From IMG/VR virus record IMGVR_UViG_2778261631_000002: 64,000 nt of DNA. One strand, written 5' to 3'. The notes under the pieces are model-generated. The model saw nothing but the letters and a program-made list of their open reading frames with translations, made no database searches and was not told the DNA's origin. This stretch comes from a virus (Duplodnaviria; Heunggongvirae; Uroviricota; Caudoviricetes). This document shows positions 6,483 through 45,618 of this stretch, one piece after another; the stretch's first letter is position 1; every line of letters begins with the position of its first letter. A program made the translations under genes and the position numbers.

Positions 6483-6839
6483 ATGGCTAAAATCGAGTAC
6501 CATCGCGATCGCGGTAATTACCTGGAAATATACGATCATGAATCTCTTAACGATATCAACGATGCGTTATATGAATACTGTGAAAAAACGAGCATCACAG
6601 ATGCACCTGATGCATTTGTCGAGATGCCGGTATATCTCCGCGACATCTATGCAATACGAACACCGCCCGTATCGGTGATTCACATTGGCTATGTCCGCCT
6701 GTCCATCGAAGAAGATGAAGATCGTTATATCGTGCGCCACTATACATTGGACAGAAAAGAACTTCCTAATGAATGGAACATGAGTAATTTCTACAACGGT
6801 GAATATGGCTTAAAATCCGCTAATAATTTACGGTCATAA
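6483..6839 (+). CDS. Hypothetical protein, translationally coupled to the upstream gene
   Basis: 118-aa ORF starting at the TGAATG junction; does not resemble theta/Hot. Confidence 0.55.
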   Translation: MAKIEYHRDRGNYLEIYDHESLNDINDALYEYCEKTSITDAPDAFVEMPVYLRDIYAIRTPPVSVIHIGYVRLSIEEDEDRYIVRHYTLDRKELPNEWNMSNFYNGEYGLKSANNLRS

Positions 6840-6928
6840 TCTATACAGGCATGTATAACAACAACGAGCCTATTAGCTGTCAACAACGTTATTTCCTCAA
6901 ATAAGAAAAAGCAGAAAAAAAATTGTTT

Positions 6929-6949
6929 AAGGTCACAAATTGTGGCCTT
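6929..6949 (-). terminator. Candidate minus-strand intrinsic terminator
   Basis: Near-palindrome AAGGTCACAAATTGTGGCCTT; minus-strand hairpin is followed by an AAACAATTTTTTTTCTGCTTTTT T-rich run. Confidence 0.35.
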
Positions 6950-7694
6950 GATGGAGGAGGGAGGCTTATTGGCTATGGCTAAAAATCAAATTAGACACTT
7001 CATGTTGCTGTAGCTCATCAAGATCCGAGGCCACAAAACCTTTTCCGAAAAACTTCACAAGTAACTCACTAGCCGCATCATTGTCACCTATTACACGAAA
7101 GTCATACGGCAACGTCGCAAGTTGACGATGTAATCCTGCTGAGAAAGTCGAATCTAACAGCGCCCAGAATTCCCACCGCAGGATAATACTCGCCTCTTAA
7201 TACTGTATATATGTTGTTACGATATGTTTTTCTGTCTCTAAAAAAAGATGTTAATAGAATGCTAACCATTGAAGGGGATAAAAATATACAATTCCAACAA
7301 ACGTTATTTTTAACAATTTTTTTCTTTGCGTTGACTTTCCCGGACACCTTGTCTGACCGAAGGTGCGCGAAAGCCACTTTTTCCTTCCTGAGTTATCCAC
7401 AAAGTTATGCACTTGCAAGAGGGCCATTTTCTACATATTGTGGTGGCTAACAGATGAAATGAATGTAGATTAATTGAAGATAAGGAGAAAATTTGAGATG
7501 CAATCATGACGTTAATAGATAGGGTCTGCATTACAGACCCCACCCGCATCAAGGAATTAGCCGTTCCCTGATGTTTTTCCGAAAACATGTGCCGTAAGCT
7601 CACGTTAACGACTTTCATTCACCGAATCCAACTATATAGGGGTTGGGTTTCTACGTCAACGTGAGCAAGTGCACCTTTACATTTGACAAGGAAC

Positions 7695-43310: not shown

Positions 43311-43607
43311 GTGTTATCCCTTGTACTTTTAATCTTCTTCGGGGGAGGTTTACCTCCCCTTGATACAACCGCATTCCACCGCCTAGCGAATAGAGTAAAA
43401 TAACATCTTGTAAATACTCTGGTATGAAGTGAGTGTAAACTAACAGTTACCTATTAATAAATACTCCTATACTTTTCTACCTTAAATATTTAGTATGCAC
43501 ATGGTTAAATTTATGTAGCGTCAAAGTTTGTGAAGGCAAGATGTCCGTTAATCTTTGTCGAAGCATATATGGTTCTAGGAAGTATTGGCTTATTTAAGAG
43601 GAATGTC

Positions 43608-44600
43608 ATGTTACGTATCAATGATATGAGCAATATTATTGTAGGTATTTACAGCAAAAAAAATGAAGAAAAATCATTTGAGTATATGTACTCTTATCTG
43701 ACAAGGAAAACAGCTTATTTAACACGTGAGTTTATTCGTGATGGTAATCAGGATAAAGAATTATTAAAAAATACCTATATAGAAGCATTGTCTTGGCTTT
43801 TTGCAATCTGTGATAAACTTGAAATACAACCACAGGAAGCATTTTATAAAAAATTTCCTAGTTGCTGTCCTTATTGCTTAGGGGCGCCTTGTTCCTGTTC
43901 TCAAACACACAGAAAGCCAGAGAAAATAAGAAGCGCAAAAGGAATTAAAGATGAGCTTTTCAATAAATATAACGCTATTAAACCTATGCAATTTCCGCCT
44001 TATGCGCCACGAATGATTAATGACATCTATCCGTCGAATAGAACCATTTGGTCTACTTTTGGTGGGTTTTATCATTCATCCAGGTTATTCGAAGAGTTGG
44101 GTGAGTTGCAAGAGGCTTATGCTAAATCAATTGAAGATAAAAATTACAACAAAGAAAATCTTCATGAAGAGTGTGCTGATATATATGCTTGGTTGTTTTC
44201 TTTATGGGGGATTATTTTTAAAGATGATGATCTTGGCGAGGCGTTTGAAAGTTATTATCTAAATGGTTGTCCTGTCTGCAATAAAAGAGAATGTGTTTGT
44301 GTCAGTTATTCAGGGAAGATTAGTAAAACTGATGAGAAAAGAGCATCATTGGAAAAACTTAAACAAGAGTTAGAACTTCTCTTGAAGGATGAGACGACAG
44401 GTGAGTTTAAGGAGAATTTAGAGTCTGCTATATCTGCAATTAAAGATGCGATAGACTCAGGAAAAGATGCAGATAGCAGAAGAACTTTATCGGAAGTCGA
44501 AAGTGTTCTTGACTCAATCGAAAAAAATTCAGCCAAGATGTCTAGTGTGGCAAGTAACGCCCTTAATGTTTTTAATGTAATCAGTAAGTTATTCCAATAA
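43608..44600 (+). CDS. MazG/HisE-like NTP-pyrophosphohydrolase-motif protein with two zinc-ribbon-like Cys clusters
   Basis: About 330 aa from the Met with AAGAGG SD; FEELGELQEAY ... HEECADIYAWL (EExxE ... EExxD); CCPYCLGAPCSCS and CPVCNKRECVC; low-GC gene in an AT-rich island. Confidence 0.6.
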   Translation: MLRINDMSNIIVGIYSKKNEEKSFEYMYSYLTRKTAYLTREFIRDGNQDKELLKNTYIEALSWLFAICDKLEIQPQEAFYKKFPSCCPYCLGAPCSCSQTHRKPEKIRSAKGIKDELFNKYNAIKPMQFPPYAPRMINDIYPSNRTIWSTFGGFYHSSRLFEELGELQEAYAKSIEDKNYNKENLHEECADIYAWLFSLWGIIFKDDDLGEAFESYYLNGCPVCNKRECVCVSYSGKISKTDEKRASLEKLKQELELLLKDETTGEFKENLESAISAIKDAIDSGKDADSRRTLSEVESVLDSIEKNSAKMSSVASNALNVFNVISKLFQ

Positions 44601-44607
44601 TGGTGCC

Positions 44608-44650
44608 CACCGGTTTGTTAGAAAATGAACCGGTGTTGTATTATTTATTA
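44608..44650 (+). terminator. Intrinsic terminator after the MazG-like gene
   Basis: CACCGGTT-12 nt loop-AACCGGTG followed by TTGTATTATTTATT. Confidence 0.65.
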
Positions 44651-44954
44651 TTAAATTAATTTTAATCCTAATAGATGGATGTTTGTTGTGGATATAATTT
44701 GTTTAAGTTTTAGGTGTATTTTTCCATATATAATCTAGGTGGTATTAGCGAAGCAAGTATGGAATTTTGTTAACAGCTAGATATTTCTGAAAGTCATCAT
44801 GTCGCGAAGGCTATTGGGAGATATGGTCTGAATCTTTGCATGATGTGAAATAACTCCTTCTACTTCATTGTGTTTTACACTATTGGGGAGAAAAGGGTGC
44901 ATTGAGGTTACCAGACACACGAAGAGTGGCGGGGATCACTCCCCGCCAGGTCTC

Positions 44955-45110
44955 TTACCTTTCAGATTCGTAGGCTGTGAAGACAGTGACCTCCGTCTGG
45001 CCGGTTCGGATTCGTACCTCGCAGAGGTCTTTCCTCGTTACCAGTGCCGTCACAATGACGGTTAAACAGATGACGATCAGAGCGATTAACATCGCTTTTT
45101 GCTGCTTCAT
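44955..45110 (-). CDS. hok: Hok/Gef-family type I toxin
   Basis: 51-aa ORF MKQQKAMLIALIVICLTVIVTALVTRKDLCEVRIRTGQTEVTVFTAYESER with AAGGAG SD; hallmark Hok sequence. Confidence 0.8.
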   Translation of the reverse strand: MKQQKAMLIALIVICLTVIVTALVTRKDLCEVRIRTGQTEVTVFTAYESER

Positions 45111-45168
45111 AGCCTGCTTCTCCTTGACCTTTTGGTCGGTAAGAGGCTAATCTACGTATGCTAAGCAT
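44962..45168 (-). CDS. mok: Mok-like overlapping reading frame
   Basis: 68-aa ORF covering hok in another frame and starting upstream of it, as in hok/mok/sok loci. Confidence 0.4.
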   Translation of the reverse strand: MLSIRRLASYRPKGQGEAGYEAAKSDVNRSDRHLFNRHCDGTGNEERPLRGTNPNRPDGGHCLHSLRI

Positions 45169-45291
45169 AGATATGGCCTCAGATTAATGTTAAGCGTCTT
45201 GCAGGACGCGTAATGTTATCTGGGGCTTTCTTCTATCTGCTTTTCGGGTCATGCCTGAAGCAGATAGCCTCAAGCACCCGCAACGATTGTA

Positions 45292-45618
45292 TCAATGTCT
45301 GGCTTTTTTTCTATAGAAATCACCTGGAAGGGTGAATATCCACATCAGAAGAAATGTTGCAGCAAACATGATCCCTAATGGCCAGACCGCGCCAAAGAAA
45401 ATCCATACTAAGATCTCCTCTGCTCGTTCTTTGCGGTCGATATCGACAAGCATTTTTCGGCTGATCATGTATACACAGAAGCCAATACAAACATATCCTG
45501 CAAAAGCGATCGCTAACTGTAAAAAATCAGATTGCATCTCCGACCTCAAACTGAAAACGCCAGGTGACTCCAGATTAGAGCAATCTATCACCCCCTGAAT
45601 CCTGCCGGTATACCCCAT
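45292..45618 (-). CDS. Small membrane protein
   Basis: Two predicted transmembrane helices; true start probably internal (MQSDFLQLAIAFAGY), since the ORF track start overlaps repL. Confidence 0.4.
   Translation of the reverse strand: MGYTGRIQGVIDCSNLESPGVFSLRSEMQSDFLQLAIAFAGYVCIGFCVYMISRKMLVDIDRKERAEEILVWIFFGAVWPLGIMFAATFLLMWIFTLPGDFYRKKARH

Follow-up and report, generated by a model that had tools for sequence, protein, structure and literature searches.

Enzymes of the all-alpha nucleoside triphosphate (NTP) pyrophosphohydrolase superfamily, which groups MazG, the dimeric dUTPases and HisE, include small MazG proteins such as SSO3215 (1vmg), AF0060 (2p06) and the integron protein iMazG (2q73) (Moroz et al., 2005, as cited in PMC9503650). 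Among the anti-phage enzymes that deplete nucleotides, dGTPase and dCTP deaminase systems have been described (bioRxiv 10.1101/2021.04.26.441389). MazG-like domains have been proposed as NTP-targeting effectors, which sometimes replace Calcineurin-CE in PUA-Calcineurin-CE-HAD systems (bioRxiv 10.64898/2026.01.15.699771), and MazG domains are predicted defence domains, none of them validated according to a 2026 survey (PMC13092281). On the phage side, Pectobacterium phage PcCB7V encodes a MazG-like pyrophosphatase, Atd1, which depletes (p)ppGpp and saves cells from TIR effectors (bioRxiv 10.1101/2022.06.09.495361; PMC10419184). Also, the cos-adjacent hotspot of P2-like phages is a prophage cargo slot with defence genes (bioRxiv 10.1101/2021.01.21.427644). 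Here we describe a MazG-like gene found in a 64-kb stretch of the IMG/VR virus record IMGVR_UViG_2778261631_000002 (hereafter the window, with coordinates numbered from its first letter), which is a P1-like (IncY) phage-plasmid. We give a probability of about 50% to the reading that this stand-alone gene is a prophage-borne anti-phage (superinfection) defence, acting via nucleotide hydrolysis or nucleotide sensing.

The gene and the segments of its product, a protein of 330 amino acids (aa), are the following:

43608..44600 (stop included), + strand: coding sequence of the 330-aa MazG-like protein with two putative zinc knuckles, from the list of open reading frames (ORFs)
43608..43856, + strand: residues 1-83, degenerate MazG-like N-terminal half, with conserved Y15, N19, R40, W63 and K82
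43857..43904, + strand: residues 84-99, first knuckle, P84-x2-C87-P-Y-C90-x4-C95-x-C97, invariant in 25 sequences
44088..44117, + strand: residues 161-170, FEELGELQEA, predicted first metal-binding motif (E162, E163, E166, E169)
44163..44186, + strand: residues 186-193, HEECADIY, predicted second metal-binding motif (E188, D191)
44262..44306, + strand: residues 219-233, second knuckle, C221-P-x-C224-x4-C229-x-C231, invariant in 25 sequences
44316..44597, + strand: residues 237-330, poorly conserved C-terminal tail of four helices (AlphaFold model, DSSP)

The gene lies at the coordinates given in the first-pass annotation, is preceded by a Shine-Dalgarno sequence, and homologues of its product start at the same methionine. 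The EExxE...EExxD motif pair which had been noticed there is present as FEELGELQEA and HEECAD (residues 186-191) and was invariant in an alignment of 25 homologues (31-79% identity). In this alignment, the invariant positions included F161-E-E-L-G-E166, E188, D191 and both copies of C-P-x-C-x4-C-x-C, and E169 was kept in at least 90% of the sequences. The spacing follows ExxE-(12-28)-ExxD, with 21 residues between E163-x2-E166 and E188-x2-D191. A second set of 46 diverse family members (20-48% identity) gave a similar picture, as E163 was kept in 44 sequences, E166 in 42, E188 in 41 (plus three with Asp) and D191 in 43 (plus two with Glu). The cysteines of the first knuckle (C87, C90, C95, C97) were kept in 46, 46, 43 and 45 of these 46 sequences, and those of the second knuckle (C221, C224, C229, C231) in 46, 46, 46 and 45.

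Direct family searches gave weak but concordant matches. With the profile of the 25 homologues, residues 149-218 aligned to two MazG-type structures, 1vmg (E 1e-4) and 2p06, with the motifs in register, and PHROG 2245 (NTP pyrophosphohydrolase) was matched at 3.5e-6. Relatives with full-length homology scored above the cut-off of the Pfam MazG model PF03819 (L032, 28.2 bits; L018, 27.0; L028, 24.9; P0164, 27.1; P0180, 29.1). An NCBIfam search of the window protein gave nothing meaningful. The AlphaFold model (mean pLDDT 83.5) is an all-helical bundle. Similarity to the MazG-like fold suspected in the first-pass annotation was therefore found, and the predicted fold and the motif together support membership of the all-alpha NTP pyrophosphohydrolase (MazG / dimeric dUTPase / HisE) superfamily.

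Beyond what had been noticed before, the protein is predicted to be an internal duplication with one catalytic half. Alignment of residues 43-99 with residues 175-233 by hhalign gave a probability of 94% (E 1e-7), which indicates the duplication of a unit made of a helix pair and a knuckle. In the N-terminal copy, T56 and E59 occupy the positions of E188 and D191, so that the second copy alone is predicted to be catalytic. The long helical C-terminal tail was also found as announced, with four predicted helices over residues 237-329 (DSSP helices 237-259, 262-284, 287-307 and 312-329; pLDDT 61-83). In relatives, a CHAT or GGDEF domain takes the position of the tail, or the tail is absent, or it is kept beside an added TIR or deaminase domain.

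One structural claim of the first-pass annotation stood in part. The two Cys4-like clusters are present and invariant, but they are contiguous 11-residue CPxC-x4-CxC stretches which AlphaFold models as coil without strands. A zinc ribbon, in which two beta-hairpin knuckles share one zinc, was thus not supported, and short knuckles describe these clusters better. Compared to the MazG superfamily (PF03819), the window protein has the same all-helical fold and the same ExxE...ExxD arrangement, with 21 residues between E166 and E188. It differs by the two units in one chain, the second alone predicted to be catalytic, by the CPxC-x4-CxC knuckle which ends each unit and lies outside the Pfam MazG model, and by the extra four-helix tail. 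No direct characterization of this duplicated MazG/zinc-knuckle family was found in the literature or in the DefensePredictor supplements (RefSeq WP_ accessions), and the architecture, together with the set of fusions described below, appears to be undescribed so far.

The window protein has 28 full-length homologues, and a comparison of the window copy with those of loci L008 and L042 gave a ratio of nonsynonymous to synonymous substitution rates (dN/dS) of about 0.05 at dS of at least 1.3, which indicates strong purifying selection. A chance ORF in AT-rich DNA was rejected on these two grounds.

The gene is the only one of an island with the following features:

43344..44882, no strand: AT-rich cargo island of 1,539 bp, between the bplB terminator and the hok/sok locus
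43342..43359, + strand: hairpin GGGGAGG-TTTA-CCTCCCC at the left junction, after bplB
43596..43602, + strand: Shine-Dalgarno sequence AAGAGGA, 5 nt 5' of the ATG, read from the sequence
44608..44650, + strand: hairpin resembling an intrinsic terminator, with a T-rich tail, immediately 3' of the stop codon (terminator scan)
44651..44882, no strand: right arm of the island, about 230 bp, AT-rich, with no ORF and no RNA-family match

Backbone homology to the P1-like phage Ro157c2YLVW ends at 43343 and restarts at 44883, and only about 11 bp separate the two break points in that phage, which identifies the island as a clean insertion of 1.54 kb. The GC content drops to 0.31-0.37 over about 43350-44850, against about 0.50 on both flanks. 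With a GC of 0.340, the island is the lowest 1,539-bp stretch of the 64 kb (1,250 sliding windows; mean 0.474, sd 0.030), in full agreement with the AT-rich island unlike the phage backbone which had been described. Both bounding hairpins also proved real and far more stable than shuffled sequences. The hairpin at 43342-43359 has a folding energy of -15.6 kcal/mol (z -3.3; 0 of 200 shuffles equally stable), and the stem at 44608-44635 reaches -19.4 kcal/mol (z -4.6) and was terminator-like in the terminator scan. The left junction lies inside the terminator 3' of bplB (window 43335-43366 compared with L015 2520-2550). Island-free relatives have there GCTCC-TTCG-GGAGC followed by T6, whereas the window has another hairpin with a poor T-run, so that the insertion replaced the backbone terminator.

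DNA homology with a P2-like copy of the gene begins at 43596, at the ribosome-binding site. The right arm contains no + strand ORF of at least 40 aa and no Rfam match, and no similarity was found between it and the DNA downstream of the P2-like copies; the Rfam scan detected no RNA inside the island. The island is thus a self-contained cargo gene of the "moron" type, with its own ribosome-binding site, one ORF and its own terminator. It shares with prophage moron slots a single AT-rich gene with its own terminator, placed at an operon boundary and swapped between unrelated temperate backbones.

The gene order around the island is tail sheath gene 22, gene 21, pmgG, bplB, the island, hok/sok, a small ORF, repL and kilA. 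The location between late structural genes and repL, beside a toxin locus, was therefore correctly recognized from the start, with bplB on one side and hok/sok-repL on the other. The slot between bplB and repL contains pmgF-rlfB-rlfA in P1 and P7 (rapB/rapA in P7), a 210-aa ORF, an 83-aa ORF and a Lom-like gene in SJ46, and another ORF in phage 673R5. These differing contents identify it as a variable cargo site. With the intervals of P1, P7, SJ46 and 673R5 (L002, L049, L050 and L051) included, at least five gene sets were seen in this slot of P1-like elements: pmgF-rlfB-rlfA, in which rlfA encodes a DUF3800 protein; a set with a Lom-like outer-membrane protein; further hypothetical ORFs; hok by itself; and hok together with the MazG-like gene. 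The interval may be a cargo hotspot of P1-like elements.

The gene was present in 19 of 5,426 complete E. coli genomes, plasmid-borne in every case, and bplB in 688 of them. The island is thus carried by about 3% of P1-like elements. It was identical (at least 99.8%) in 17 PLSDB plasmids, all of them P1-like plasmids of E. coli, in which the protein is 99.7-100% identical. A megablast search of the phage collection gave no match to the island, which is absent from the deposited P1-like phage genomes. The comparison with P1 and its relatives which the first-pass annotation had proposed therefore speaks against a conserved morphogenetic or replication protein of P1, a candidate rejected on the frequency of the gene and on its absence from deposited P1-like phages. 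General plasmid cargo was rejected as well, as the carriers among 72,556 plasmid records are P1-like plasmids only.

These frequencies also bear on a role in nucleotide-pool housekeeping, in which a dimeric-dUTPase-like or house-cleaning enzyme would clear away dUTP or damaged dNTPs while lytic replication proceeds from the nearby oriL. Such a role fits the fold match and the position of the slot, which adjoins the lytic replicon repL. Also, one distant homologue (35% identity, L014 3155-9697) lies immediately downstream of nrdA/nrdB, which encode ribonucleotide reductase; this adjacency is a single instance, and the link to nucleotide metabolism may be due to chance. The 177-aa ORF that follows this homologue presumably encodes a protein resembling a REP-associated tyrosine transposase. 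Nevertheless, about 97% of P1-like elements do without the gene, and the match to dimeric dUTPases (S. aureus phage, 5myd; Campylobacter jejuni, 1w2y) is at the level of the fold, with 7-8% identity. These dUTPases, unlike the window protein, have no cysteine knuckles and no tail. Zinc knuckles, tail, immune-domain fusions and a two-transmembrane partner would all be left unexplained by housekeeping. Moreover, dUTPase and MazG genes are common in virulent phages, from which the present family was absent among 50,697 phage records. We consider this explanation improbable.

Close homologues of the protein were found in Enterobacterales wherever the organism was named (E. coli, Enterobacter, Providencia, Pantoea, Pectobacterium), and RefSeq labels them "MazG-like family protein", nothing more. 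Copies with 76-79% identity are located in two P2-like phages between gpS and gpV, that is, in the P2 inter-operon slot of the non-essential orf30, flanked by the O-operon terminator and the pV promoter. Prophages of the P2 type also have copies at their ends: one lies beside tail-fibre genes (Providencia) and another, at a different locus, beside the integrase, and some of these prophage-end copies are convergent in orientation. Four lambdoid prophages carry a copy between replication/ParB/methylase genes and the ant, DUF968 and Q genes, and one copy was found in a small chromosomal islet of Pectobacterium. The GC of every copy is 0.32-0.35, against 0.42-0.58 for the host loci, and DNA similarity across contexts is limited to the ORF.

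A tblastn search of the 50,697 phage records detected no relative in any tailed or virulent phage. Its sole match was an 8-kb filamentous Vibrio phage with a full-length homologue of 29% identity. In this phage (L053, PQ189347.1; Tubulavirales), the homologue occupies 6649-7641, about 12% of the genome, after a gene-I/Zot-like gene, at a site which we take to be the one where CTXphi carries its toxin genes. All the IMG/VR matches compared (P1-like, P2-like and lambdoid) are temperate-type contigs. Together with the absence from virulent phages, this argues against a function in the lytic cycle or in anti-defence. The slots concerned, namely bplB-repL in P1-like elements, the orf30 slot between gpS and gpV in P2, the lambdoid ant-Q region and the inovirus cargo slot, differ from the published hotspots.

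In the Pantoea/Pectobacterium clade, the next gene downstream of the homologue encodes a protein of 245-252 aa with two predicted transmembrane segments and a coiled coil in its middle part. This gene follows the homologue in seven loci of a clade with 50-55% identity, at these positions:

L011, 9069-9806
L013, 9069-9806
L012, 1568-2326
L006, 9080-9826
L007, 2714-3460
L010, 9077-9823
L005, 9068-9805

The gene call in L005 is shorter (174 aa), and the tblastn match there spans the full length. The two-transmembrane protein had no credible Pfam match (one weak 7TM hit was below the cut-off) and no PADLOC match; it may be an effector partner. No remnant of its gene was detected by tblastn in the window or near the P2-like copies, and no relationship to it was detected for the genes that follow the homologues in Pseudomonas and Aliivibrio. 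One could thus imagine that the window gene is an orphaned sensing subunit whose membrane effector was lost, the island having no function of its own. The conserved partner in seven loci, its absence from the window and from the P2-like copies, and the 230 bp of unexplained non-coding DNA in the right arm would agree with such a remnant. However, the partner-less copies of the window, L008 and L042 are precisely those under strong purifying selection, the protein is nearly invariant in the 17 plasmids, and about 100 cluster representatives are likewise of the stand-alone size, about 330 aa. A decayed remnant therefore seems a poor explanation, with little chance of being correct.

The wider family gives more information on the possible wiring of the protein. 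An exhaustive profile search yielded 994 clusters at 50% identity (449 at E <= 1e-10), and a scan with one genome per species found members in Pseudomonas, Aliivibrio, Burkholderia, Acidobacteria, Methylocapsa, Patescibacteria, Anaerolineales and a Woesearchaeote. The core (residues 1-233) occurs alone, at about 220-255 aa, or with the tail, at about 330 aa. There is also a single-unit form of 115 aa with CPRCGGTPCTC at its C-terminus. In other relatives, the core has a fusion partner, which is TIR (N- or C-terminal), a dCMP/cytidine deaminase, a Ser/Thr kinase, GGDEF or CHAT. The fused kinase domains match the PADLOC models PD-T4-6 and mad6, the fused TIR domains match ThsB and PDC-S66, and the fused cytidine deaminase domain weakly matches the dCTP deaminase model. 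One CHAT fusion is flanked by an integrase gene and an Abi_alpha (PDC-S47) gene, and another adjoins an AIPR gene. Association with mobile cargo and with defence domains is thus observed at individual loci, through the cargo slots, the fusions and the Abi_alpha and AIPR neighbours.

These observations favour defence for two reasons. First, a constant nucleotide core with swappable TIR, deaminase, kinase, CHAT or membrane partners is the usual build of immune proteins. Second, four unrelated types of temperate phage carry the gene as a lone AT-rich cargo gene, and it is absent from virulent phages. The first-pass annotation had proposed a defence or counter-defence candidate, and the cargo positions in temperate phages and the fusions shift this proposal towards defence.

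We propose the following scheme for defence. The island, inserted in a P1-like phage-plasmid at the variable slot between bplB and repL, would encode a pseudo-dimer in one chain, with the fold of the all-alpha NTP pyrophosphohydrolases (MazG / dimeric dUTPase). Its N-terminal half, which has lost the acidic residues, probably aids substrate binding, while the C-terminal half has an intact predicted Mg2+-binding tetrad (E163, E166, E188 and D191), and each half is pinned by a four-cysteine knuckle which probably binds zinc. The core would bind and hydrolyse a nucleoside triphosphate, either one of the (d)NTP pool or a non-canonical one that an invading phage makes. Hydrolysis would starve or stall the replication of the invader, and the lysogen would be protected. 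In relatives, the same core appears wired to TIR, a deaminase, a kinase, a CHAT protease, GGDEF or the separate two-transmembrane protein, which suggests that the core is also a nucleotide-gated sensor. With nucleotide-depleting defences, this scheme would share the proposed logic of a mobile-element enzyme attacking the nucleotide supply of the invader; the fold is unlike that of HD dGTPases or deaminases, and there are no PUA or HAD partners at the locus.

A broader and more speculative view, to which we give about half the weight of the reading above, is that the duplicated MazG/zinc-knuckle core is a widespread and hitherto unrecognized immune module, a nucleotide-gated switch for interchangeable effectors which reads a nucleotide reporting infection. 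Infection might be reported by a phage-made modified dNTP, for instance, or by a disturbed (d)NTP pool, and binding and hydrolysis of the nucleotide would turn on the effector, be it a TIR, deaminase, kinase or GGDEF domain, a CHAT protease or a membrane protein. In its stand-alone form, the E. coli enzyme would then be sensor and effector at once. Such a switch can be likened to the signalling proposed for phage dimeric dUTPases.

Several points weigh against the defence reading. The window protein itself scores 14.7 bits with PF03819, below the 22-bit cut-off, and whole-chain Foldseek searches of the PDB and BFVD gave nothing significant. No PADLOC model matches the protein, the sole hit being a chance-level LmuB match on the coiled tail (E 0.015). 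Many distant relatives lie in ordinary chromosomal neighbourhoods rather than in defence islands. The fusions fit a core acting as sensor as well as a core acting as effector, so that the effector of the stand-alone E. coli protein is ambiguous. Catalysis, zinc binding, substrate, trigger and defence phenotype are all inferred. Also, the promoter scan found no consensus sigma-70 promoter upstream of the gene. In P1-like, P2-like and lambdoid settings alike, the gene points in the same direction as the phage operon before it, late or early, and it may be expressed in lytic growth for the phage's own benefit. Finally, a phage MazG-like protein with the opposite, anti-defence role exists in Atd1 (bioRxiv 10.1101/2022.06.09.495361).

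These last points lead to counter-defence, in which the protein would break down an alarmone or a nucleotide used in immune signalling ((p)ppGpp, cyclic or TIR-derived) and so blunt host abortive infection during establishment or lytic growth. Besides Atd1, the orientation of the gene in the three backbones and the lack of a strong promoter of its own detected by the scan speak for such a role. The window protein and Atd1 share a phage-encoded MazG-like catalytic domain with a role, proposed in the case of the window protein, in phage-host conflict. However, Atd1 is by description a bare MazG catalytic domain with (p)ppGpp as its substrate, and this sets it apart from the duplicated zinc-knuckle architecture; moreover, relatives of the window protein are fused to TIR, which Atd1 opposes. 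Anti-defence genes are usually common in tailed and virulent phages, where the tblastn search found no relative. One-chain fusions to TIR, CHAT, kinase and deaminase, with Abi_alpha and AIPR neighbours, are a defence architecture, and copies located at prophage ends (convergent), in an inovirus cargo slot and in bacterial and archaeal chromosomes are also at odds with counter-defence. We therefore regard it as unlikely, though somewhat less so than housekeeping or a decayed remnant.

Directly to the right of the island, a complete hok/sok type I toxin-antitoxin locus extends over window positions 44955-45279 on the - strand:

44955-45110, - strand: hok ORF of the hok/sok locus
44962-45168, - strand: mok-like ORF of the hok/sok locus, overlapping hok
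45105-45279, - strand: sok RNA of the hok/sok locus (Rfam RF01794, 113.9 bits)

This locus is part of the backbone in some P1-like phages (Ro157c2YLVW), and rlfA/rlfB are in its place in P1 and P7. In some otherwise identical plasmids, the insertion sequence IS421 (IS4-like) lies between the MazG-like gene and hok (L001 7625-8961, CP063732.1; L045), with 12 bp corresponding to window 44932-44943 duplicated on either side. Between hok/sok and repL, a 108-aa ORF with a hydrophobic core occupies 45292-45618 (- strand), a site at which a shorter hypothetical protein of 81 aa is annotated in relatives.

P1-like phage-plasmids occur in roughly an eighth of the complete E. coli genomes. If the defence reading is true, the MazG-like gene would add a new catalytic fold to the nucleotide-targeting defences, and bplB-repL would be a new immunity cargo slot in these phage-plasmids. 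If, in addition, the substrate were a non-canonical nucleotide specific to the phage, defence would be possible without killing or harming the host. If the gene instead serves anti-defence, temperate elements would carry Atd1-like functions. The family constitutes a compact, single-gene and E. coli-native test case for MazG immunity, with a clear set of mutants (four acidic residues and eight cysteines) and natural fusions which hint at its wiring.

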